IMG/VR virus record: IMGVR_UViG_3300037067_026422
Direction: 5' to 3' (one strand)
Origin: a virus
Taxonomy: Duplodnaviria; Caudoviricetes
DNA: 64,000 nt
Both the position numbers and the translations under genes were made by a program. Each line of letters starts with the position of its first letter. Positions within the stretch are counted from its first letter, which is position 1. Below, piece after piece: positions 1,122 to 43,048 of this stretch. The notes beneath the pieces were generated by a model. The model was not told the origin of the DNA. It made no database searches and saw nothing but the letters and a program-made list of their open reading frames with translations.

Positions 1122-2702
1122 TTATTTAAAGTCTTTTCTTGTCAACAAAGGAGTGTCCATGACTTCCAGAACTAAATCCAGTTTATTAGTCTTCGCAAGA
1201 AGAGGGATAAGCCCCGGCAGAGCATAATAATCGTTCCCCTGGGGAGTATATATATCAAACTCGATCCCAGCACTCTTCAAATTAGAAGAAAAGGTATGGT
1301 CTGCAGGCCCAACATGGATAATCACAACATTCGGACGAGTGTTGAGTCTCTTTGCATACTCCTCATATGTCGGAGCAAACATCGGAGTAGCATTCTCCCC
1401 CTCATCTGTGATCACTACAATCGTATCCACCCGGATCCCTTTCTTAATCAGTAAACTAACAGCACAACCCATCGAGGTAGATCCACCCGGATGAATTGGA
1501 CTAAAAGCCCTCTCCCAATCACTTAATGCTTTTCCTTTCGCTACTATCTCCATAGGAGTAGTATCAAAAGCTATAACTGTCAAATTGGATACAGAAGCAC
1601 CGGAAATAAGCGCTGCTGCATTCTTACCCACCAAGATAGCCTCATGCATCGAACCTGATCGATCAACAAATACCGCGATATCCGAAGCAATAACCCCGCT
1701 CTTCTTGACCTGCTCATCAGCAACTTTATCCATCTGCTGTATGATCGTTTCATCTTTAATACGACCGGTTTTCACTGCCGTTTTAGTCTTCAGAGTAGCA
1801 ACATTCTTGGACTTCTCCGCCTTTTTGAGCTTCTCCTGAATAAGGGCCTTTGTCTGCTCATTAGCCATAACACCCTTCTCCTCAAGAGAAGCCATGTTAT
1901 TAATAACTTCCATCGGAGACATACTGTTGATAAGAGCAACCAAGATAGACGGTGTAATCTTCGGTACTATCCCTACAGCTACAGTATATGGAATATTATA
2001 GGTCACAATTAACTTTGCTGCTTCATCCGGTGCCGCAGATGCAATTTGCTTTAGAACATTGAGCTTTGAATCCTCCGGTATCTTCTTATCAAAAAGAATA
2101 GCCTGAGCCCGATCGCTACGCTTTATACAATGCTTCGACGTCTTAGAAACAAAATACAAGCTCTTAAGATCTGCACGATTTTTAAGGACAACCGCATCAA
2201 AACGCTTATCATCAGCCTCCAGCCAATGCAAATACTTCTCAACATCCTTTTTGAAGCTGGTAGGGACATTCACCTTAAGGCCTACTTCCTTCTCCTTGAT
2301 CTTAACCTCATCAACCGTCTTCTTTCCAAGCTTGATCTTATTCCCAGTCTTCTCACGAAGCTTAACTTTCTTCCCCTTGATGAAGCCAAGAATACGCGCC
2401 TTCATAAAAGGAGCATGCTCCCGGAAAAGAGCAAGACCAACCTCACGGTTATCCAGAAATGGATCTGTAATCAACATCGAAGCAAAAACTTCATTATGAT
2501 CCCGCACCTCTCCCTTTTTCAGATACCAACACGCAAGATGAGAGTAAAATAACGGATCCTGAGCCCGTATCTCTTCATGAATCTTCTTAAGGCTATCGGT
2601 ATCCCGATGAGGACACGACATAAAAGAGTTAAGGATTCTTACACGAATATCCCCCTCAACTGCCGGAGCAGCTTGAACCGGTAACGCACGACGAATAGTC
2701 AT
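1122..2702 (-). CDS. vWA-domain protein with helical N-terminus (Ro60/TROVE-like architecture)
   Basis: MIDAS motif DRSGS, GGSTSMG and VITDEGEN in a C-terminal vWA domain. ATG at 2702 has GGAG 9 nt upstream (ORF track start is TTG at 2717). Confidence 0.85.
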   Translation of the reverse strand: MTIRRALPVQAAPAVEGDIRVRILNSFMSCPHRDTDSLKKIHEEIRAQDPLFYSHLACWYLKKGEVRDHNEVFASMLITDPFLDNREVGLALFREHAPFMKARILGFIKGKKVKLREKTGNKIKLGKKTVDEVKIKEKEVGLKVNVPTSFKKDVEKYLHWLEADDKRFDAVVLKNRADLKSLYFVSKTSKHCIKRSDRAQAILFDKKIPEDSKLNVLKQIASAAPDEAAKLIVTYNIPYTVAVGIVPKITPSILVALINSMSPMEVINNMASLEEKGVMANEQTKALIQEKLKKAEKSKNVATLKTKTAVKTGRIKDETIIQQMDKVADEQVKKSGVIASDIAVFVDRSGSMHEAILVGKNAAALISGASVSNLTVIAFDTTPMEIVAKGKALSDWERAFSPIHPGGSTSMGCAVSLLIKKGIRVDTIVVITDEGENATPMFAPTYEEYAKRLNTRPNVVIIHVGPADHTFSSNLKSAGIEFDIYTPQGNDYYALPGLIPLLAKTNKLDLVLEVMDTPLLTRKDFK

Positions 2703-2765
2703 ATATTGTGTCTCCAAATTATTTGTTATCTTATATATTAGAGCATCTTTTTATTTAATGCTTCG

Positions 2766-3479: not shown

Positions 3480-3511
3480 ACCTTATCCTAAATCTCATAG
3501 AGCATCACATA

Positions 3512-3539
3512 GGGACATCCTCACTCGCGTAGAGAAAGC
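3512..3539 (-). CRISPR. Solitary degenerate type I-E-like repeat followed by a 32-nt spacer-like segment (3480-3511)
   Basis: GCTTTCTCTACGCGAGTGAGGATGTCCC is 22/28 identical to the repeat at 16069-16096, with the same GCGA loop. Confidence 0.6.
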
Positions 3540-3635: not shown

Positions 3636-3662
3636 GTTTCAATCCACGCTTTTTATAGCGAC
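3636..3662 (-). CRISPR. Shortened type I-C-like repeat
   Basis: GTCGCTATAAAAAGCGTGGATTGAAAC: GTCGC start, CGCT/AGCG stem, canonical GCGTGGATTGAAAC 3' end. Confidence 0.75.
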
Positions 3663-3708
3663 AAACTCAAGATAAAAATTGAAACAACAAGTTACATAAG
3701 TCGTGTCT

Positions 3709-3781
3709 GCTAATTTGAAGGAGTTGAACCTTCGACCGAAAGATTAACAATCTTTTGCTCTACCAACTGAGCTAATGTAAG
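3709..3781 (-). ncRNA. tRNA-Asn(GTT)-like RNA with defective acceptor stem (tRNA mimic / Y-RNA-like candidate)
   Basis: D arm TAGCTCAGTTGGTAGAGCA, anticodon arm AAAGA-TTGTTAA-TCTTT and T arm GAAGG-TTCAACT-CCTTC are intact. Acceptor CTTACAT/AAATTAG pairs only 4/7 and there is no CCA. Enclosed by a long outer stem 3678-3696/3795-3814. Confidence 0.8.
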
Positions 3782-3806
3782 CCTTCACAGTAATTGTAAC
3801 TTGTTT

Positions 3807-3840
3807 GTTCCAATCTACGCACCGCTTCTTTCAGTGCGAC
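3807..3840 (-). CRISPR. Type I-C-like repeat
   Basis: GTCGCACTGAAAGAAGCGGTGCGTAGATTGGAAC: 7-bp stem CGCACTG/CGGTGCG, matching the I-C pattern GTCGCAC...GTGCGTGGATTGAAA(C/T). Confidence 0.75.
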
Positions 3841-4709: not shown

Positions 4710-5825
4710 TTAACCTACCGGTAATCCAGCAAGCATCCCATCTTTGCAGTCTTTGAAATCCTTCATCCCTCCTGCTGCCAATCTCTCGAACTCTTCCTGG
4801 AAAACAAAATAAATGGTCATCACTGAATCTGGTTTGTCCTTCCAACTATCCAGTGGATAACTATCTTCTGGTAGCTTCTGTCTTATCTTAGCTCCAGCTC
4901 CTACTGCCACTTCTTTTTCCGGAGTATAAGTCGATCTCTCCTTATAAGTTTCCATAACATTCTCACCACACAAGCAATCCAGACTCCTACCTGTGTCTGG
5001 GGACACCATATAGAGTGTCTGTTGTTCACTATTACATACACTATTAGCCTGTGTATCAGCAACAGGAGACACAGAATCTTTTATAGCACTTCTACACCGT
5101 AATTCCCCTATACCCCTCAAAAATCCCTTGCTTTTCTTTTCAATTGAATTACTTAGTGTATAATTAAGCGAATGAGAGTACGTAGGCAATGTAATGTAAT
5201 TCACATAAGACTCAGGCTCTTGGTAAATAAGATTTAAACGAGTACTCGTGGATGTAGGGGAACGGGGCTCTTTAGGACGATAAAAAGCAAATCCAAAAGC
5301 CGGTACTGTATTATCCTTACCAATCATATGTGTAGCAATATCCCGCATCATATCTTCTGTAAAAAAGAATTGACGTACGTCACCACCTGAAGTAAATCCG
5401 TCCCACCATAAGGGGTTATTACTTACATAGTTGCGTGATTCCCATTTATATCCGCACTCCGGGCAGAATCGTACAGCCTGAAAATCACACCCATGTATTG
5501 GGCACTTATTATCATATCTCTCCATAAAAAAACCAGTAGTCTGAAGCCCAGTAATTGGGTTACATCCCTTTACCGTAGGGATGACCGCGGTATTGTTTGC
5601 ATCATTGTCTCTCCAGTCAAACCAGAGTCCTTTATTGGGCTTTACGGGCACTATGAATACACCCGGTCCCTTCATCCAGCCTAAAGGGTAGTTATTAAAA
5701 GCATCCGCATAATAAACCGGTAAGGGTGTCCCTGGAGGCAATCCATGTGTCATACTCCCGGTAAGTCTTGGGGCCTCCATTATCTTTGCAAAAAAGCCTT
5801 TATGTTCCATTTTTGTCATCTGCAT
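4710..5825 (-). CDS. Conserved hypothetical protein with Zn-ribbon insertion
   Basis: LPPG..LPVY...W...PGVFIVPV...LWFDW; CPIHGC...FCPECG; C-terminal GAGAKIRQ..ED.YP.DSW. ATG at 5825 has an AAAGGGA RBS. Confidence 0.75.
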   Translation of the reverse strand: MQMTKMEHKGFFAKIMEAPRLTGSMTHGLPPGTPLPVYYADAFNNYPLGWMKGPGVFIVPVKPNKGLWFDWRDNDANNTAVIPTVKGCNPITGLQTTGFFMERYDNKCPIHGCDFQAVRFCPECGYKWESRNYVSNNPLWWDGFTSGGDVRQFFFTEDMMRDIATHMIGKDNTVPAFGFAFYRPKEPRSPTSTSTRLNLIYQEPESYVNYITLPTYSHSLNYTLSNSIEKKSKGFLRGIGELRCRSAIKDSVSPVADTQANSVCNSEQQTLYMVSPDTGRSLDCLCGENVMETYKERSTYTPEKEVAVGAGAKIRQKLPEDSYPLDSWKDKPDSVMTIYFVFQEEFERLAAGGMKDFKDCKDGMLAGLPVG

Positions 5826-5896
5826 ATGATATCCCTTTATTTTATTTTCTGAAGAATAAGATAAAAGGGCAGATAATACCTGCCCTTTTATCAAAA

Positions 5897-6877
5897 TTAG
5901 AACTGACGTTTACCTGAAACATGAAAAGGATCCTTAAGCTCTACCGGAACCTGTGCCGGTCGATCAGCTATTCTTTTCAACTTTGGAAGGTTACCTGTAA
6001 CTTTTAACTCGTCAAACTGTTTTGCAATACCAGGCCATTCAGCTTTAAGACTATCAATACCTTTACTGGCACAAACCCCAAGAGCTTTACGATCTGAAGC
6101 TGATTTAGGGTTTATTTTACCAGCATCAACAACCAGCTTAACATAAGCACGCTCATCATCTCCGACACCTGAAAAATTTGATTCACAAGCAGAGCAATAC
6201 CCTTTCCAAAGTATCTCACCACAAATAGGACAGGTGTCTATGATTCTATCATTGATATTGAGTTCGGTGATCTTATAAACTGTCGCAAAGGTATTTTCTT
6301 CATAGGGTACGATCGTTGGATTGGTACGCTTTCGAGCTGCTTTGAGTAACTCCAAAGAATACGCAATATCAACTATCTCTTTTCCTGGAATATGCTTACC
6401 GGGTTTTAATACTATAAATGCTTGACTTCTACTTCTACGATTAAGCTCCTGCTCCATATTCTCATCCCGGTTTGTATTCCACATAGTCAAAAGCTCAGTA
6501 TCTGTCATTTGACCTATGGGTTTGTTTGCCTGGATAAACTCAATGATAGCAGAACTTGAAGTATCCGAAGATACACCATTATCCGGTTTTACAACTTTTG
6601 GGGTTTCTTCCCCGAAAGGATCTTCACCTTTGAGGTACATAGAGGCTGCTTTGATGCAGAACTTCCCTTTACCTTCAAAATTCTTGGTAAGGATTTCAAC
6701 GATATCTTCCTGGCTAATCACTCGAGAATTCAAGTATTTCAGACCGGCACCATCTTCATCGATACCAAATGCAGAAAGAGCTTCTTTGAGCTTAGGTACT
6801 TCAGAATCTTGGAGTTTGAGGGATTCTGCAGCTTTTTGAAAACGTGCGGATACAAAGGATAGATTGGTGGTAGACAT
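5897..6877 (-). CDS. Hypothetical protein with Zn ribbon
   Basis: 326-aa ORF; CPICG...YCSAC; AGGAG RBS. Confidence 0.8.
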   Translation of the reverse strand: MSTTNLSFVSARFQKAAESLKLQDSEVPKLKEALSAFGIDEDGAGLKYLNSRVISQEDIVEILTKNFEGKGKFCIKAASMYLKGEDPFGEETPKVVKPDNGVSSDTSSSAIIEFIQANKPIGQMTDTELLTMWNTNRDENMEQELNRRSRSQAFIVLKPGKHIPGKEIVDIAYSLELLKAARKRTNPTIVPYEENTFATVYKITELNINDRIIDTCPICGEILWKGYCSACESNFSGVGDDERAYVKLVVDAGKINPKSASDRKALGVCASKGIDSLKAEWPGIAKQFDELKVTGNLPKLKRIADRPAQVPVELKDPFHVSGKRQF

Positions 6878-14765: not shown

Positions 14766-17700
14766 TTATATTCGGTACATGATGCAGAGTATTAAAAATG
14801 CGTCTATTGATATATTGTCTGTTGATTTGTAAAAAATCTCTCCATCCCTACTCAGTATGCATAACTTTTGCTTGGGCCCTATAAACAGGTTGTCACCCCC
14901 AGTTCTAATTATCTCTAAAATATGTCGTAATTGACGAGCTGATACCGGATCAATGTCCATAGGATAATTGAAATAGCCTTCAGCATCAATTCTATCCATT
15001 ATCTTTGCATCCTTAAACAGCGTATCAGCTATATTACTTGCTGTTTTATTCAGTACTGCATGAGCATCACTTTTAATATCCACCCCATCGACAAGCATAC
15101 TCTTAACAGTAATATCTTTATAATAGTTATCCGCACTACTTAAGGTAGTACTGACAGGTTCTACTATCGCAGGATCAGAAGTTGCAGGATCAGAAGATGT
15201 TTCAACGACTGGTTCAGTTTTATGAGCTACTTCAAAATTACCAGTACCTTCTTTTTTTATCTTTTCCTTATATTCTTCCCAATAGTTATGGTCAACATCA
15301 AAAGTATCACCATACTCAGCATCCACATCAAAAGGAACTTCCCACTTGAGCTTGTCCGTAAGATCTCTCAGTTTCATAATCCGACATAGCTCCGGTATTA
15401 CAAAATCAAGCTTATCTTCTTTTACCTCAAAAAGAATTTCATCATGTATCGGGAGAAGAATCTTGATATCCTCCTGAAGATTGTTTTCACAGATCCATTT
15501 ATAAACTCTCCATAAAGCAATCTTTATTACATCAGCCCCCGTATTTTTACTGATGATACCTGCTGAATCAAACCTGTGTAGATCAGAATGAACGGATAAT
15601 GTAAAGGTATCTTCAGTTTTATCTATAATAGTTTTCTTTTTTAATTTATAGTGATAGTATATCTCGGATGGAAGCTCACACCCATATTTCTTCATCATCA
15701 AGAGCATACCCGGCAAGGTTACTTTTTTACCCGTATTAAGCTTACAAAAGTATGCACAATCATTAACATTCTTTCTGTCATATACTGAATAGAGTTTATT
15801 TTGAAATTCCTTTCTCAAAAATTCCGGTAGGATCATCTTGTTAATAGTACTTCTTCTTTTCCACTCTGTAGAAGGTAATCCCAACACCTCCTCTACTTTT
15901 TTAAGATCTTGCCATTCAAGTTTATAGGTATCTTCAGAAACCTTCCTTACAATAGAAGGCAGCCCAATTGACCAGCCTATAAGTTGTGTATCTCTTAACA
16001 ATGCTACAGAAACACCTCCACTCGCGTAGGGAAAACTTATACTTATGTGATGATCGAGAATGAGCTCGGAAACACCCCCACTCGCGTAGGGAAAACTATT
16101 ACAATCATCTGTATCAAAGTATCCCTTTATAAAAGCTGTCCTCATACTAATAGGAGATCTAAAAATCATTTCCGGTATACGCTTAGGTCTTGAGTCAGCA
16201 GGTTGATAACCTAATTCTATAAATAGATCAACCAAACCTTTTGAATTTATCTCCGGAAGATATTTTTTTAATCTTTCATCTTCCAGATTTAATTTCAGGG
16301 ACAATCTGGGGTTAGTTCTTATATCATCTCCTACTACATACCCCATCAAATAGGCTATAAAATCCCATTGCTCTTTAGAGTCTATGACAAAACTTTTTCC
16401 ATTATGAACTGATGCCTTATATTCATATCTTGGTGGATAGCTTCCAAATTCTTTAGCCAAAGGAATAGACACGCATATATCGGTATTTTCATCAAGGTCC
16501 TTAAAATGCCGAAATTCATACCCTTTTTCACCTACAACCAAAACTTCGTGTCGTGTATCACACCTTAAAAGCATACCATTAGATAGTTCTATTGTTGCTA
16601 ATTGACACTTCCCCCTATTAAGAACATCAAAGCTAGCCCATGTGGTACCCGTCCATATTTTTAGATGCTCTCCTTTATCCTTAAACTCCTTAATAGTTCC
16701 TATTGATATATAACCATACTTATCCGTTAAGCACCGCTCTTCCTTAACAAGGCAACCCTGTACGGCTGAATTTATTGCGCATCTATCTCCCTTCGCCTGT
16801 ATCCCTTTATCAGGAGAATTGTAGAATTCCCCAAGAGAACGTCGTCGACCAAACGCAGTCTTACTATACCCACGCTTCTTGGCAGCTTTCCATTCACGCT
16901 GGATCCAGCTACTCAAACCCTTATATTCCTTAAAGAAATTAATAATCATCTTTTTGGCTGTCTCATAGGGTATCTTTGCTTGTGCAGCAAATCCTCCTGC
17001 TCCTCCCCCATATAAAGTTAGGAAATTCAAGGTCTTACCGATCCCGCGTTCTCTCTTGGTAATCTCACTTTTACCCGTGATAATCTTACCTGTGATAGTA
17101 TGCAGATCGCCTGTACCGTGAAGAAACTCATGCAACCATTTAGGCTCTTTAGAAACATTGGCAGCTACCCTCAATTCTTCTCCACTATAGTCTATGGACA
17201 ACATCTTATATCCAGGGTGCGCTATCATTGCTTTACGGAGGTTAATAGAGTGCGGGTCTTCTTTATTATAGGTAGGGACATTCTGACAGTTGACACCACA
17301 GTAACCATCTATTTTCACACCATAACCACCCGAACCGCTAAAACGACCCGTATCCGCCTGAACCTGATTTAGTTTGAATTTAACCTCATCATTTTCATCA
17401 GCATTGATTAACCAGTTGTGCAAATAGGTGCTTTGAACTTTGACATAACCACGATAGGTCAAAACCATATTCATTAGGGGATTTTTAGTCTCCACCATCT
17501 CAAGCACTTCACCATTAGTCTGATACCCCCCAGCTTTTGTCCTTTCAGCTTTTTTAGGATATGGTAATTTAAGCTCATCAAATAAGATCACCCCAAGCTG
17601 CTGTGCAGAGTTTATATCAAATTCATGCCCTACGATGGTATATATCTCTTTTAACAGCTTCTGCATCCTACGCTCTACTTCAATATTCACTTCCTCAAGA

Positions 17701-18497
17701 TATCTCTTATCAATCCTTACATAGTTTCTTTCCATTTCCATCGTAACGAACAAGCAACGCTTTTCAATCTTATATATCGCCCATGGACCATCCCTGCCCG
17801 TCGGATCCTGTTGGTCTATTTTTTCCTTTAAATAAAAGTATAGTGCCAGCGTATTCATCCCATCACCACCACCATAATAAACAGCCTTCTGCGGTGGGAT
17901 CATTTCAAAAGCCACGACAGACTTTTTACGCCCTTTCACACCCATATCATCAATTTCAAGCTGAGGTCGATTGAGGAGAGCCCCTGACAGATATTTTAAA
18001 CCTTTCTCTCTCCTGGAAGCATCTTCTACTGCTGCCATGAGAAAAGTATCCTCATACATTTCTTCACGATCTATGAAGATGCCATGATTCCTTAAAATCT
18101 GACCATCATATTTGAAGTTGTGAAAAACTAATACACAGCTAGCCACAAGCCTGGCAGTTTCCCGAAGCATAAAACTTAATGAAACATTGTATTCCTGAGC
18201 ATCCTCATGAGAGATAGGGATATATACCCCTTCATCTGGATCATGAGCCATGCATATCCCCACGATCCGTATAACAGGCTTACCCTCGGAATCAAGTCTC
18301 GTATTGAGACCTGTAGTCTCAAAATCGTATGAGCATATCCCCTTTTTTATACAGAGATCAATAAAAGCTTCAATATCTGTCTGCTTTTTAAGCAGTATGA
18401 ACTTCTTTGTTTTCATCCATGGACGAAGCTCTATAAGCTCTTTGACACTACTTTCTGTAAAATCATCTAAAAGTTTTGAGGCTATATCAATGGACAT
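14766..18497 (-). CDS. polA: DNA polymerase family A (3'-5' exonuclease + polymerase) with intein
   Basis: Exo I DFETTG, HNFKYD, TGRFS, motif A DYSGEELR, motif B RGIGKTLNFLTLYG, motif C IHDEI; no 5'-3' exonuclease; ~160-aa C-terminal extension. Confidence 0.95.
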   Translation of the reverse strand: MSIDIASKLLDDFTESSVKELIELRPWMKTKKFILLKKQTDIEAFIDLCIKKGICSYDFETTGLNTRLDSEGKPVIRIVGICMAHDPDEGVYIPISHEDAQEYNVSLSFMLRETARLVASCVLVFHNFKYDGQILRNHGIFIDREEMYEDTFLMAAVEDASRREKGLKYLSGALLNRPQLEIDDMGVKGRKKSVVAFEMIPPQKAVYYGGGDGMNTLALYFYLKEKIDQQDPTGRDGPWAIYKIEKRCLFVTMEMERNYVRIDKRYLEEVNIEVERRMQKLLKEIYTIVGHEFDINSAQQLGVILFDELKLPYPKKAERTKAGGYQTNGEVLEMVETKNPLMNMVLTYRGYVKVQSTYLHNWLINADENDEVKFKLNQVQADTGRFSGSGGYGVKIDGYCGVNCQNVPTYNKEDPHSINLRKAMIAHPGYKMLSIDYSGEELRVAANVSKEPKWLHEFLHGTGDLHTITGKIITGKSEITKRERGIGKTLNFLTLYGGGAGGFAAQAKIPYETAKKMIINFFKEYKGLSSWIQREWKAAKKRGYSKTAFGRRRSLGEFYNSPDKGIQAKGDRCAINSAVQGCLVKEERCLTDKYGYISIGTIKEFKDKGEHLKIWTGTTWASFDVLNRGKCQLATIELSNGMLLRCDTRHEVLVVGEKGYEFRHFKDLDENTDICVSIPLAKEFGSYPPRYEYKASVHNGKSFVIDSKEQWDFIAYLMGYVVGDDIRTNPRLSLKLNLEDERLKKYLPEINSKGLVDLFIELGYQPADSRPKRIPEMIFRSPISMRTAFIKGYFDTDDCNSFPYASGGVSELILDHHISISFPYASGGVSVALLRDTQLIGWSIGLPSIVRKVSEDTYKLEWQDLKKVEEVLGLPSTEWKRRSTINKMILPEFLRKEFQNKLYSVYDRKNVNDCAYFCKLNTGKKVTLPGMLLMMKKYGCELPSEIYYHYKLKKKTIIDKTEDTFTLSVHSDLHRFDSAGIISKNTGADVIKIALWRVYKWICENNLQEDIKILLPIHDEILFEVKEDKLDFVIPELCRIMKLRDLTDKLKWEVPFDVDAEYGDTFDVDHNYWEEYKEKIKKEGTGNFEVAHKTEPVVETSSDPATSDPAIVEPVSTTLSSADNYYKDITVKSMLVDGVDIKSDAHAVLNKTASNIADTLFKDAKIMDRIDAEGYFNYPMDIDPVSARQLRHILEIIRTGGDNLFIGPKQKLCILSRDGEIFYKSTDNISIDAFLILCIMYRI
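15543..16754 (-). mobile_element. Intein (404 aa) in PolA with degenerate LAGLIDADG endonuclease
   Basis: Inserted in NSAVQG|TGAD; starts CLVKEE, block B CDTRHEV, ends SAGIISKN|T; motifs YLMGYVVGDD and FIKGYFDTDD. Confidence 0.9.
16009..16096 (-). CRISPR. Type I-E-like mini-array (2 repeats, one 32-nt spacer) inside the intein coding sequence
   Basis: GTTTTCCCTACGCGAGTGG(G/A)GGTGTTTC at 16069-16096 and 16009-16036; spacer CGAGCTCATTCTCGATCATCACATAAGTATAA; translates as duplicated SFPYASGGVS. Confidence 0.85.
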
Positions 18498-21286: not shown

Positions 21287-24200
21287 CTATTTGAAAACAG
21301 AACTATATAGGGCATCAACCGTGCCCTCATCATCCTTAAACAGTATATTATCTTTAAAATCTATTGCACCCTCAGCTATATCACCTATGACATTACCTAT
21401 AAGATCCTTTTTAGAATCCAGTATCTGAAGCACATGTTCATCTATGGTTTTTTTATTTATCATATGAAGCAGTAATATGTGCTCACGAACGCTACCTATG
21501 CGCTGGGCCCGCCCTATAGACTGATAAAGGTCCCCATAAGACCATGGCGTGTCGTAATAGAGTATTACGCCAGCAGCTTGAAGATTGATCGCTGCTGATC
21601 CTGCCTGAGTAATAAAAATAACCTTGCAATCCTGATTCATGTCCTGAAATAATTTCTTGGAGTTATTACGGGCTATCGAATCATCATCTCCCGTGATCCT
21701 GACATGCTTTATCTCAAGCTCATCAAGAGTGTGTGCAAGTCGTTTGATACCCGATTTGAATCTGGTAAACACTATCGTTTTCTCCTCCGATAGCTCTTGC
21801 TCAAAAAGTCTCCGAAACTCTGTTTCTTTTGAACTCTCTCCCTCTTCCCCCAACCACCCTGGACCATTAGAAACAAGCTGACAATAGGATAATGCAGCAA
21901 TTTTATTTTTTAGAAGTCCGTCTTTTGTAAGGGATTCTTCATATCTAAGCTTAAGTAGCTCAAAAGTTTTACTCTCTTTTTCAGTCAACTCAGCCCTGCC
22001 ACTACAATACTCTTCAAACTTAAAGTACTTTTCTTTGATCAGTTTACGATAAAGCTCACCACTCAAAGCTTTCCTATATAATTGCTCCTGATCTTCAGAC
22101 ATTTCAAGTATAAGCTTTCTGGAGATAAGCTGTGGCAGTTCTGATGCAACATCACGAGTTTTACGCATCAAGAAGAAAGGGTCTATAAGATCCTTAAATT
22201 GTGCAAGATTCTTATATCCTACAGTTTTATTGAAATAACGCTTTCTTCCCTTTTGCCACAGAGTCATCTTCTTTCTTATAACGTATTCCCTATTAAATCC
22301 TATCTTTCCCGGGAATAATCCTGGCACTATTACTTTATATATATTATAAGGTTCCTCAAGCCGGTTCTTTATAATCGTAGCAGACATCCCATAAACGAAG
22401 GTGGCTTTTGAGGATATTTCATTAGCTCCGAACCATGTCTTAGTTGTACTGTTTTTGATCTCCTGTACTTCATCAAAGGCAACCTGAAACAACGTACCAC
22501 GATTTTCAGCCAAAAATATATAATCATCCTGCACGACATGATAGTTACAGATAAGAACATGGGCTTTTATATGATTATACTGCGCTTTCCGTGCTTCAAT
22601 CCCACGAAGAGTCTTATACTTCTTTCCAGACACTTTAAGCTCTTCGATAGAGCCATACTGATCTACGCCTTTTACCTTACCATATTGGTTGGTGAGGACG
22701 TGAACAGTAACTCCCTCACAGAATCTCTCAAACTCCTCTTTCCACTGCTCCATAGCCGATTTTGCAGTCACTACAAGAAGTTTCAGATTTGGAGTAGACA
22801 TAAGACGATAAGCATATGCAGTTATCATCTGAAGCGTATTATGATTAACGAAACCATTACCTATAAAATGATTCTCCACCGGGACATTAAAATCAGCAAA
22901 AACAGCTTTTACTGGTTCTATAGATACTATTTTATCAAAATAAAAGTTTTGATCTTGAATAAACTTTAATGTTGAATAATTCGAGACTATTTCTTTTAGA
23001 TTATATCTATCTATCTCTTGTATAAAAGAATCCAGCAATTCATAAGTCAGTCCTTTTTTCTTATAGATGACTTCTTCTAGCATTCTTTTTAAATGGTATC
23101 CAACCATACCTTTCCAACCAGACCCTTTAACTGAAAAACCTTTATGTTCTGGAAGAGTCTTTAAATGGGAGATTATATCATTTATTGCCTGTTTTACTAA
23201 AGGTTTCCCTATAGATATTATATCCAGATTAGAGTTTCTTTTTTTATTTATTACTTGGCTAAGAAATTCATTTTTCCTATTCGATATAAACCCTATAGTC
23301 TTCTGAAATTCCACAGCATCCCTACCGCAAAAATAAAGAAGAAAGTAAGGTCTCCGTTCATTTCCTACGCTTACCATTTTTTTCTTTAATCTTGATGTAA
23401 CCCCAAAGTTTAATAACAATAGTTGTGTTTGCTTTAGAAGTATCTGAGATTTTGAAGAGCAGCTAATTATGCCATTTGAAACCTCTACACTACCATTCCC
23501 CTCATAATATGCTCTTAAAAAAGCCCTAATAACAGATCTTGGGGAAGACAATATAGAATCTGGTACTTTTTGATCCCCAGACCTTGCCTCAAGGTTAATA
23601 CCTAATAACTCAAAGATCTTTACTATCTCCAAGCTATTTATAGTTATTTCTTCGTTGTAATTTAAAGTATTTTCGGATTGAACATAACCAAAAATACTTG
23701 ATAATAATTCCCGTATCTTTTTATGAATAGGAGGATCGAACTGAGTAATGACTATAGTATACTCACGTGAGCCGTGCCCCTCAGAGACATAGAAGCCTAG
23801 TAATTCCGCCAGATTCTCATCAAGATATGATGGGATCTTATACCCTTTAGAACGAGTACTGTTTTTTTCATACGTGATATTAACGTACTTGTCCGAGAAC
23901 AAACCACCTCTATAAATACAGGCGTAATCCCCTACACTCAAAGTATCAAGTCGCTTATATTCAAAAGAGTCAACAGTGGGAACATAAAGGGGATGATGCC
24001 CCAATCCTATTAGTTCATAACCTTTTTGAGTGGTTATTTTTAAGCCATCTTTTTCACCACAATAGTATATAGCCCCAGGTCTCTGAGGACCATTCATAGT
24101 TAAGATATCTAAAGCATGCAAAAAAGAATATAACTGATCTTCCTTAACATCAAGGGGTAACAAATCCTTAAGTTTTTTTAATCCATTAGTGGTCGGGATA

Positions 24201-24412
24201 TAAGATTCTACATCGATGCACTTTCCCAAACCTACACCATCTCCAAGAATCATTCGAGAAAGAGAAAGAAGATGTACAACCCCAATGGTCTGATACCCAC
24301 GAAGTTGCGTAGAGGGGTTTAGATATTTGCAGGGCTTAAGACTTGCTTTTTTGGACTGACGGAGCTTTTTGAGAAAAGCATAATTAGACGGTTTGCTGCT
24401 AACGCCAGCCAT
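21287..24412 (-). CDS. SNF2-family helicase with intein
   Basis: LRGYQ, GDGVGLGK|T, DEVQ, MSAT, AAINLQAA, QSIGRAQRIG. Confidence 0.92.
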   Translation of the reverse strand: MAGVSSKPSNYAFLKKLRQSKKASLKPCKYLNPSTQLRGYQTIGVVHLLSLSRMILGDGVGLGKCIDVESYIPTTNGLKKLKDLLPLDVKEDQLYSFLHALDILTMNGPQRPGAIYYCGEKDGLKITTQKGYELIGLGHHPLYVPTVDSFEYKRLDTLSVGDYACIYRGGLFSDKYVNITYEKNSTRSKGYKIPSYLDENLAELLGFYVSEGHGSREYTIVITQFDPPIHKKIRELLSSIFGYVQSENTLNYNEEITINSLEIVKIFELLGINLEARSGDQKVPDSILSSPRSVIRAFLRAYYEGNGSVEVSNGIISCSSKSQILLKQTQLLLLNFGVTSRLKKKMVSVGNERRPYFLLYFCGRDAVEFQKTIGFISNRKNEFLSQVINKKRNSNLDIISIGKPLVKQAINDIISHLKTLPEHKGFSVKGSGWKGMVGYHLKRMLEEVIYKKKGLTYELLDSFIQEIDRYNLKEIVSNYSTLKFIQDQNFYFDKIVSIEPVKAVFADFNVPVENHFIGNGFVNHNTLQMITAYAYRLMSTPNLKLLVVTAKSAMEQWKEEFERFCEGVTVHVLTNQYGKVKGVDQYGSIEELKVSGKKYKTLRGIEARKAQYNHIKAHVLICNYHVVQDDYIFLAENRGTLFQVAFDEVQEIKNSTTKTWFGANEISSKATFVYGMSATIIKNRLEEPYNIYKVIVPGLFPGKIGFNREYVIRKKMTLWQKGRKRYFNKTVGYKNLAQFKDLIDPFFLMRKTRDVASELPQLISRKLILEMSEDQEQLYRKALSGELYRKLIKEKYFKFEEYCSGRAELTEKESKTFELLKLRYEESLTKDGLLKNKIAALSYCQLVSNGPGWLGEEGESSKETEFRRLFEQELSEEKTIVFTRFKSGIKRLAHTLDELEIKHVRITGDDDSIARNNSKKLFQDMNQDCKVIFITQAGSAAINLQAAGVILYYDTPWSYGDLYQSIGRAQRIGSVREHILLLHMINKKTIDEHVLQILDSKKDLIGNVIGDIAEGAIDFKDNILFKDDEGTVDALYSSVFK
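22838..24220 (-). mobile_element. Intein (461 aa) with LAGLIDADG endonuclease in helicase Walker A
   Basis: GLGK|CIDVES...GNGFVNHN|T; motifs LLGFYVSEG and FLRAYYEGNG. Confidence 0.93.
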
Positions 24413-41707: not shown

Positions 41708-43048
41708 CTAAAAAGGAGTAGAAATAATAGTAATTTCTGTTTTATAACCTGATGAAACAGCCACATCCCCTGTATCAGTCTCAAAATCTTTAGTTTCTAT
41801 ATACTCTGCTGTAGTTGTTACAGGAGACTTATACCCAGATGATATAGCTACATCTCCTGAATCAAACTCAAAATCTTTAGTCTCTATATATTCTGCTGTA
41901 GTTGTTACAAGAGACTTATACCCTGAAGATAGCGCACTAAAAAGCATGTTATCCTTAGTATCTACTGTGTAGTTATCTGGATCTATCAGTACTGTTTTAT
42001 CTGGATAAGGATATAATTCAAAAAAAACATAGTAATTAGGTGAGGTTACGAATTCATCCGTAAAAAGAATCGTATTTAATCTAATACCCACATACTTTAC
42101 ACCTATAGTCCCAGTCCATAATTTATACCTATTCTGGTACCCTGTAGCCTGATACTTACTAAGAGTATACGTAGCTTCTAAAATATAATCATTCCCTACA
42201 AGAGTAAAAAATTCATAAGTAATACCACTCTTTATATAAGAAAGATAATCTCCCCCAACAGAAGGTAAAAAAACGTATGGCTGATCATTAACGAAAGCAA
42301 AACCTGGTACTCCGATGGGATATTCATTACTTTCAATTACCACCCCGGATTTATATCCAGAACTACACCCTGCAACAGCTAAAGTGTTCTCTGGATCTCG
42401 ATTAAGCGTGATAGTACCTGAAGTAATTGTTATGCTCTGCAATGTCTCCCACGTTAACTCATCCGCAGGATTAAACTCCCTGACATAGGTAGCACTATCT
42501 TTTGTATAATTAAGATAAATATATCCTGTATTAGAGTTATAAAAACACATCGGATTAGAACCAGTGTTCAATAACTCTTCATAATCATTCCATGTCCAGG
42601 TAGAACCCAAAAGCGTTTGCTTCCTGACATAGATGTAATTACCTGAATGCTCTAACTCCTGTATTCTAGTAATAGATGAGTTACCTGAACTCACGTATGC
42701 CAATAAAATGACATCCTTCAAAAATGACATTGTTAGATTAGTACCTATCCCAAGGACACCTGCGGTTGTTACATATACCAGCTGAAAACTATTAGGAGTA
42801 GCTATTAGATTCCCACTACTCCAGGTAATTCCCGATATACCATTTAATTCTCCATTACCTGCTTCTACTGATATGTCAAAAGATGGTGCAACAAAAGTTA
42901 TTCTTGAAAAAGATATCTTACCCGTAGTTAAAAATTTTGAGTAAAAAGCAATTCTCTGTCCTGATGGAAGGACAATAACACTCGGAGAGCTATTGATTCG
43001 ATTATTATCCGTATCATAGGTGAGTTGATAAGTGGTCGTAGCATCCAT
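41708..43048 (-). CDS. Virion protein with C-terminal 29-aa tandem repeats
   Basis: SSGYKSxVTTTAEYIETKDFExDxGDVAx repeated (87-nt unit, 41742-41929). Confidence 0.65.
   Translation of the reverse strand: MDATTTYQLTYDTDNNRINSSPSVIVLPSGQRIAFYSKFLTTGKISFSRITFVAPSFDISVEAGNGELNGISGITWSSGNLIATPNSFQLVYVTTAGVLGIGTNLTMSFLKDVILLAYVSSGNSSITRIQELEHSGNYIYVRKQTLLGSTWTWNDYEELLNTGSNPMCFYNSNTGYIYLNYTKDSATYVREFNPADELTWETLQSITITSGTITLNRDPENTLAVAGCSSGYKSGVVIESNEYPIGVPGFAFVNDQPYVFLPSVGGDYLSYIKSGITYEFFTLVGNDYILEATYTLSKYQATGYQNRYKLWTGTIGVKYVGIRLNTILFTDEFVTSPNYYVFFELYPYPDKTVLIDPDNYTVDTKDNMLFSALSSGYKSLVTTTAEYIETKDFEFDSGDVAISSGYKSPVTTTAEYIETKDFETDTGDVAVSSGYKTEITIISTPF

Follow-up and report, generated by a model that had tools for sequence, protein, structure and literature searches.

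An apparent type I-E CRISPR unit in frame within the intein of a phage DNA polymerase

How does a repeat-spacer-repeat unit of the kind found in CRISPR arrays come to lie in frame inside an intein, and does its RNA do anything there? The question is raised by a 64,000-nucleotide (nt) stretch of phage DNA (IMG/VR record IMGVR_UViG_3300037067_026422, Caudoviricetes), here called the window, in which such a unit sits within the intein of a family-A DNA polymerase gene (polA). The element is very likely a genuine type I-E repeat-spacer-repeat unit that replaces the DNA-binding hairpin of a decayed LAGLIDADG endonuclease domain.

The unit and the intein that carries it

The features of the locus lie on the minus strand, which is the sense strand of polA:

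14766..18497, minus strand: family-A DNA polymerase gene, 1243 amino acids, interrupted by an intein; Pfam DNA_pol_A matches it in two stretches (E 9e-82)
15543..16754, minus strand: intein, amino acids 582-985 (404 amino acids), with an intact Hint splicing domain and a decayed LAGLIDADG endonuclease domain
16253..16254, minus strand: junction (P748/E749) of a 29-amino-acid deletion in the first endonuclease lobe, unique to this phage in the alignment
16098..16124, minus strand: second LAGLIDADG motif, GYFDTDDCN (GYFDTDGCK in homologs), placed by alignment
16069-16096, minus strand: upstream repeat, GTTTTCCCTACGCGAGTGGGGGTGTTTC, 28 nt, identical at 28/28 positions to the type I-E repeat of three metagenomic loci (L122, L156 and L157)
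16037-16068, minus strand: spacer, 32 nt, unique, between the two repeats; its first base is C
16009-16036, minus strand: downstream repeat, identical at 27/28 positions, being GTTTTCCCTACGCGAGTGGGGGTGTTTC with GGA instead of GGG

The unit has a period of 60 nt (28-nt repeat plus 32-nt spacer) and lies in the sense strand and reading frame of the polymerase open reading frame (ORF; 14766-18497). Its translation, SFPYASGGVS-ELILDHHISI-SFPYASGGVS (amino acids 801-830), follows GYFDTDDCN directly. An earlier note, made from the letters of this DNA, had reported two 28-nt repeats, a 32-nt spacer and a 60-nt stop-free unit after the second LAGLIDADG motif, with the repeats in mRNA sense, and that description is correct in every point. 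Repetition is confined to the first 28-34 nt of each period, and shuffled versions of the window yield zero matches to the repeat within 3 mismatches. The repeat is free of stops in 3/3 sense frames and the spacer in 2/3, so that an open frame is by itself unremarkable.

The upstream repeat can fold into a 7-bp stem with a GCGA loop, followed by an 8-nt handle that consists of GUGUUUC and the first spacer base. The single G-to-A change of the downstream repeat is synonymous (GGG to GGA, Gly both times) and disrupts the second pair counted from the base of the stem, weakening the hairpin from -10.2 to -5.5 kcal/mol; here too the earlier note, which had called the change synonymous and stem-weakening, was right. 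Rfam does not detect this repeat family: with E values of up to 10 allowed, the unit still hits none of its CRISPR-DR families. No cas families are found among the window's 27 larger ORFs that were scanned.

The intein is common to 65 other proteins, of which the 39 closest, from syntenic large phages, were taken into the alignment. Pfam recognizes DNA_pol_A and the intein splicing domain in the window polymerase. The intein boundaries (QG/CL...IISKN/TGADVIK) and block B (CDTRHEV) are identical in the 39 homologs, and the splicing residues C582, CDTRHEV, IISKN985 and the +1 residue T986 are intact, as in the homologs. Judged from the alignment, the endonuclease domain is uniquely damaged here: both LAGLIDADG motifs are altered (motif 1 is a residue short and reads GD-D, and DG has become DD in motif 2), 29 amino acids are deleted, and the hairpin that follows motif 2 is replaced. 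Pfam LAGLIDADG_3 is not detected in the polymerase.

The CRISPR unit is present in 0/39 homologous inteins. At its position the homologs encode KRRNRYGYHTPN, which has no similarity to the repeat. They read ...GYFDTDGCKKRRNRYGYHTPNxxLLRD..., and the window reads ...GYFDTDDCN-[30 residues]-VALLRD...; the unit thus stands in for about 12 residues and adds 54 nt net, within an intein of 404 amino acids versus 412-422 in the homologs. Its boundaries coincide with the repeat ends to within about 1-4 nt, and there are no partial spacers on either side. The nearest relatives, on contigs of 135 kb and 210 kb, have nothing resembling the repeat within 10 kb. The relatives are 60-62% identical at the protein level, and their DNA is too diverged for microhomology at the junctions to be judged. 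The comparison makes it close to certain that the unit is foreign to the intein, as an insertion or a replacement, and answers the earlier note's question whether the array is an insertion, for which it had proposed an alignment of homologous inteins.

Structure prediction suggests how such an insert might be tolerated. An AlphaFold2 model of the intein, built from the homolog alignment, has a mean predicted local distance difference test (pLDDT) score of 88.5 and a predicted template modelling score of 0.88, and pLDDT falls below 50 solely at residues 221-246, within the unit-encoded peptide. The top Foldseek matches are endonuclease-bearing inteins (7qss, 2cw7, 1dq3 and 1dfa), and the best structural matches include TliVMA, PI-PfuI and PI-SceI. 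In the model, the unit-encoded peptide would be a disordered loop that leaves with the intein. Because the splicing residues are conserved and the model is confident, the phage can very probably still produce its polymerase.

Late in the homing cycle, the endonuclease domain of LAGLIDADG inteins decays, whereas the splicing domain is retained. The window intein resembles such inteins in its intact Hint domain, the alteration of both LAGLIDADG motifs and the loss of DNA-binding strands, and differs from them in having a CRISPR unit where the hairpin was lost. In the literature searched, no report was found of a CRISPR unit replacing an intein endonuclease hairpin.

The window has a second intein, in a SNF2-family helicase (21287-24412, minus strand), where, unlike in the polA intein, LAGLIDADG_3 is still detected (Pfam E 1e-18). 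The SNF2 helicases of relatives vary in this respect: that of L160 has no intein and is adjoined by an IS605 OrfB/TnpB (Cas12f-like) gene, and that of L162 carries two inteins.

The unit does not appear to be a product of assembly. Contigs from a groundwater run, which is probably that of the source sample, cover the polymerase gene with zero differences. A landfill run, from another study and another year, yields 10 pieces at at least 99% identity to the window. A 158-nt landfill unitig corresponds to 15949-16106 with zero differences and contains the whole unit and both junctions, although it reaches only 10 nt beyond the junction on the upstream side. The presence of unit and junctions in the sample of a second study makes an assembly chimera very unlikely. 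Over the upstream repeat, samples X1 and X2 have additional depth; co-occurring arrays may be its source, and it is not counted as evidence.

The genome is that of a large ("jumbo") phage. The contig of the polymerase phage is about 239 kb long and is detected in groundwater and landfill samples. All larger ORFs of the window lie on one strand and include a replication module as well as baseplate wedge and tail-fibre proteins (PHROGs). The gene order SNF2 helicase, DnaB, primase, polymerase, ..., NAD ligase, ParB is shared with the 135-kb and 210-kb relatives, and the best match among phage records is a 485-kb uncultured phage. The 88-nt unit with both repeats has no match in phage records, and no IMG/VR contig carries the exact repeat.

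A repeat shared with cellular type I-E loci

If the repeat is not native to the intein, where does it occur? When one genome per prokaryote species was scanned with a degenerate pattern, at least 120 loci matched the repeat family. The majority are arrays of 61-nt period, and their repeats, GTCTTCCCCACGCnnGTGGGGGTGTTTC, differ from the window repeat by 2-5 mismatches. The exact 28-mer is found next to cas genes. L122, a metagenomic contig of 1.4 kb, has at least 5 copies of it with 33-nt spacers, in an array that begins 35 nt past cas2e, itself downstream of cas1e (NCBIfam TIGR03638, 326 bits, and TIGR01873, 98 bits). L156 and L157, whose Cas1e proteins are 93% and 86% identical to that of L122, have the full operon cas3-cse1-cse2-cas6e-cas7-cas5-cas1-cas2, and the first repeat that follows cas2 is the exact 28-mer. 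The earlier note had assigned the repeat to type I-E by its shape; its exact occurrence in arrays at cas1e-cas2e and at complete I-E operons with cas6e bears this out. The sense of the repeat relative to the cas genes in the host arrays is its sense in the polA mRNA. These I-E loci form a low-GC clade, and their GC content is 0.37-0.40, against 0.36-0.41 for the window.

The same loci define what a normal unit looks like. Among 1028 natural spacers of the repeat family, 999 are 33 nt long, 26 are 34 nt and 1 is 32 nt, in agreement with the earlier note's statement that the unit normally measures 61 nt. Natural spacers of the family start with C or T, and the intein spacer starts with C. The leader motif CACAAAAyTTTGyT, seen at L122, L156 and L157, is absent at the intein unit.

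The closest named relatives of the Cas1e proteins (75-76% identity) are scattered among Desantisbacteria, the PVC group, Selenomonadales and Sedimenticola, and therefore allow no host call.

Some further features of these loci may be recorded. In L156, L157 and the related L158, cas6e is placed between cse2 and cas7, a position that departs from the gene order of Escherichia coli (in L156 the gene occupies 5636-6226), and the leader from cas2 to the first repeat is just 35-90 nt or so, with the conserved CACAAAAyTTTGyT. At L123 (1762-1789), cas1e-cas2e are followed by one repeat and a terminator, that is, by an "empty" array. At L060 (370-397), from Limosilactobacillus alvi, there is one orphan repeat, 1 mismatch from the window repeat, with no surrounding array.

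What the unit may do and how it may have arisen

Tentatively, and at somewhat below an even chance, we favour the reading that the intein holds a captured I-E unit that acts at the RNA level, as a guide-like or decoy RNA. Because the unit has no promoter of its own, it would be transcribed within the polA mRNA only, which would carry it in CRISPR RNA (crRNA) sense. In a host with a matching I-E system, Cas6e would be expected to bind the upstream repeat, which is exact, and to cut there; cleavage at the downstream repeat, which is weakened, would be poorer. The product would be a guide-like RNA made of the 8-nt handle, the spacer and a 3' hairpin or trimmed tail, and this RNA would occupy Cas6e and Cascade subunits of the host, either as a decoy or as a guide. 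The price of such processing would be that part of the polymerase mRNA is cut. The frame is presumably kept because the polymerase needs its intein to be translated and spliced. Support for an RNA-level role is indirect and includes the exact upstream repeat, the precise boundaries at the repeat ends, the crRNA sense and a second I-E-like repeat in the window (see below).

It has been shown experimentally that phage repeat mimics and mini-arrays disable I-E systems (PMC10651486; bioRxiv 10.1101/2024.10.29.618823). The solitary-repeat RNA anti-CRISPRs (Racr) RacrIE1 and RacrIE2 act on type I-E and inhibit immunity (PMC10651486). Like them, the intein unit mimics a host CRISPR repeat and, from its sequence, may be expected to engage Cas6 and Cas7. 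A Racr, however, is a single repeat in a small non-coding RNA, whereas the intein unit consists of two repeats and a spacer in an mRNA and has no promoter; it thus falls outside the class, which the solitary copy at 3512-3539 fits better. The Racr survey examined intergenic regions and treated intragenic matches as a probable false-positive class (PMC10651486), so that a unit like that of the intein would be missed.

The Cracr arrays, including an I-E array of a Salmonella prophage, are processed by host Cas proteins, for which they compete and which they reprogram, and they tolerate a defective last repeat and 3' trimming (bioRxiv 10.1101/2024.10.29.618823). They are likewise short phage arrays of I-E-like repeats. 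Their spacers, however, are 21-24 nt long and partly match a cas promoter, whereas the intein spacer has 32 nt and no such partial match in L156 and L157, which have the exact repeat, or in the related L158.

The unit also resembles the mini-arrays of viruses and large phages in being phage-borne with no cas genes nearby, in its cellular-type repeats and in its one or few spacers; host Cas proteins would have to be borrowed. Such cas-less mini-arrays were reportedly described by Faure in 2019, Medvedeva in 2019 and Al-Shayeb in 2020. In contrast to the intein unit, which is in frame within a protein-coding gene and promoterless, mini-arrays are intergenic and have their own promoters, and the intein unit further differs in a spacer 1 base under the natural length and in the absence of a competitor target among the sequences searched. 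Cas-less mini-CRISPR arrays of viruses and large phages have been reviewed (PMC11656645; PMC7099407). What is known, then, is the cas-less phage mini-array or repeat mimic; what appears to be new is its place in frame, in the intein of an essential gene and without a promoter, a setting not found in the literature searched.

Several observations weigh against a role for the RNA. The unit of 60 nt is 1 base shorter than the natural 61 nt (28 + 33). The earlier note had imagined a guide aimed at a competitor or a host gene, but no protospacer came to light. The spacer has no match in 50,697 phage records, where BLAST gave chance hits only, none in IMG/VR (exact or with every sixth base free), none in the window within 3 mismatches, none in 163 fetched loci, and none in related phage loci. 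Against L156, L157, L122 and L158, its best seed runs and total matches are within the range of shuffled spacers. Conversely, the 1028 array spacers and the L122 spacers have no match to the window beyond chance (best, a 17-nt exact stretch). No sigma-70-like promoter or terminator flanks the unit on its own strand. The weakened downstream hairpin is the one that stays in Cascade. The unit is known from one phage lineage, so that its conservation cannot be judged. It lies in a visibly decaying domain (the 29-amino-acid deletion and both altered motifs), where almost any in-frame insert would be tolerated. The phage would lose copies of an essential mRNA to Cas6e cleavage, a cost that the earlier note touched on only as possible regulation, although intergenic space is plentiful in this phage. 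Finally, the putative link to a host consists of repeat identity and GC content only.

How would two repeats and a spacer have been assembled in this place? One route is stepwise: a phage-borne single repeat would have been in frame first, and host Cas1-Cas2 would then have added a spacer and duplicated the repeat. Each such event would add 28 nt plus a spacer, and since 28 + 32 = 60, only 32 nt among the natural spacer lengths keeps the frame. Direct capture of a repeat-spacer-repeat segment would be expected to bring a spacer of 33 nt, because any suitable junction could keep the frame. Off-target Cas1-Cas2 integration is reported to make spontaneous CRISPR-like loci (Nivala et al. 2018, cited in PMC11788318). 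The intein unit shares with such loci a 28-nt duplication around a spacer-sized insert outside any array and differs from them in what is duplicated, which there is sequence native to the site and here a foreign canonical repeat that the homologs lack. A single repeat would have had to precede any Cas1-Cas2 integration. The stepwise origin would predict relatives with a single repeat and a spacer derived from the phage itself or from a host. That an essential phage mRNA doubles as precursor crRNA (pre-crRNA), from which Cas6e excises an RNA that loads or poisons Cascade, and that the unit was created by Cas1-Cas2 integration into a phage-carried repeat, is in this full form a doubtful proposition on the sequence evidence.

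Nearly as likely as an RNA-level role is that the unit is a neutral passenger: a piece of an I-E array, of the host or borne by a phage, that came by a rare recombination or integrase accident into an endonuclease domain of no further importance and persists only by virtue of its frame, its RNA having no role. The state of the intein fits this: the endonuclease domain is uniquely decayed in this phage, with LAGLIDADG_3 lost in the polymerase and still found in the SNF2 intein of the window, and the unit peptide is disordered in the model. The lack of a promoter and of a spacer target in the searches above, the atypical spacer length, the weakened second hairpin and the absence of the unit from all relatives point the same way. 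A random capture, however, should seldom end exactly at repeat ends; the upstream repeat is still identical to the natural repeat at 28/28 positions; the unit lies in crRNA sense; and the second I-E-like repeat of the window, in a non-coding transcript, suggests that the phage uses such mimics. Exposure of an essential mRNA to Cas6e should moreover be selected against in cas-positive hosts. The earlier note's view of the intein as a "safe harbour" shares in this ambiguity: it fits a decayed endonuclease domain and a peptide confined to a disordered, spliced-out loop, but the same decay makes a neutral passenger plausible.

Two further explanations carry less weight. Cas6e cleavage of the polA mRNA might tune polymerase output to the CRISPR status of the host, a coupling that we regard as improbable. 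The unit is sense-oriented inside an essential gene of early type, and enzymes of the Cas6e type cut once and then remain bound to their product in I-E biogenesis, both of which suit such a switch; yet there is no sign that less polymerase benefits the phage in cas-positive cells, and the spacer would be superfluous, as one repeat would suffice. A native tandem duplication of coding sequence, or an assembly chimera, in either case unrelated to CRISPR, is the least probable explanation by far. The in-frame position and a 60-nt period that equals 20 codons are what a duplication would produce, but the homologs differ in their native sequence at the site, repetition within each 60-nt unit is limited to its first 28-34 nt, and the repeat is identical to cas-adjacent I-E repeats; a chimera is contradicted by the second, independent sample that holds the junctions. 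We consider both refuted by the homolog sequences, the cas-linked identity of the repeat and the landfill junctions.

Repeat mimics and mini-arrays carried by phages form an emerging class of RNA anti-CRISPRs and inter-virus weapons, and the intein case adds an unambiguous intragenic unit, with a cas-linked repeat identity, a spacer, the correct sense and two independent samples. If the unit is processed, CRISPR RNAs can be concealed in coding regions, and in inteins especially, too few such elements are counted by surveys with masked ORFs, and one transcript could be both mRNA and pre-crRNA. Even as a neutral scar it documents, in a rare physical form, that a phage genome and a CRISPR array (or its integrase) have been in exchange, and the 32-nt spacer can then be read as a trace of selection on the reading frame. 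Should both the pre-crRNA role and the Cas1-Cas2 origin be true, the intein would be the first case of a CRISPR array sheltered in a protein-coding "safe harbour", and the unit would show directly that adaptation machinery has written into the genome of a phage.

Other repeat-like elements in the window and in viral contigs

The second I-E-like repeat of the window is solitary and degenerate:

3512..3539, minus strand: solitary I-E-like repeat in degenerate form, GCTTTCTCTACGCGAGTGAGGATGTCCC, matching the intein repeat at 22/28 positions, with the core CTACGCGAGTG kept

It also keeps the unusual CTAC variant of the stem, and 0/400 block shuffles reach 22/28. The repeat lies in a non-coding stretch, about 32 nt ahead of a strong intrinsic terminator whose stem of 18 pairs is at 3479-3440; at 3642-3615 on the minus strand there is also a weak promoter-like site. 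From these features it looks like a Racr-type or guide-like small RNA, and it is possibly related to the intein unit.

The sequence behind the solitary repeat has a partial counterpart in the intein spacer. The first 9 nt after the repeat (TATGTGATG) are the reverse complement of intein-spacer positions 18-26. The complementarity reaches 11/12 upon extension (3500-3511 against 16043-16054), for which the chance is roughly 0.004, and it may be a coincidence.

Mini-arrays of two repeats with a 33-nt spacer, as well as solitary repeats, of the same I-E family are found in IMG/VR contigs (L132, L138 and L147; L127 and L146). The copies in L127 and L146 are sense-oriented in open frames of 600-645 nt, and further intragenic cases may exist.

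Near the solitary repeat, on the minus strand, are two sequences that resemble type I-C repeats, GTCGCACTGAAAGAAGCGGTGCGTAGATTGGAAC and GTCGCTATAAAAAGCGTGGATTGAAAC, at 3637-3663 and 3807-3840. GTCGCTATAAAAAGCGTGGATTGAAAC has the canonical ending TGGATTGAAAC. Rfam CRISPR-DR hits at the two sequences are at chance level only (E 3-4). Alternatively, given that ATTGAAACAA pairs with the upstream TTGTTTCAAT, they may be read as a plain structural stem. They bracket a tRNA-Asn-like gene (3708-3782); aligned to Rfam, its acceptor stem is poorly paired.

About 1 kb from this tRNA-like gene lies an ORF (1122-2717, minus strand, 531 amino acids) whose product matches PHROG 850, "RNA-binding protein" (E 1e-7), contains a DRSGSM motif of the vWA type and finds no sequence match in Pfam or the PDB. 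The protein may be Ro60/Rsr-like, in which case the tRNA-like RNA 1 kb upstream would be a possible Y-RNA-like partner and not related to CRISPR.

Tandem repeats of a different kind occur in coding regions of the window. Those at 559-893 have periods of 18-60 nt and are rich in CTCCTG/CTACTG, and the one at 41742-41931 comprises 2.2 copies of an 87-nt unit.

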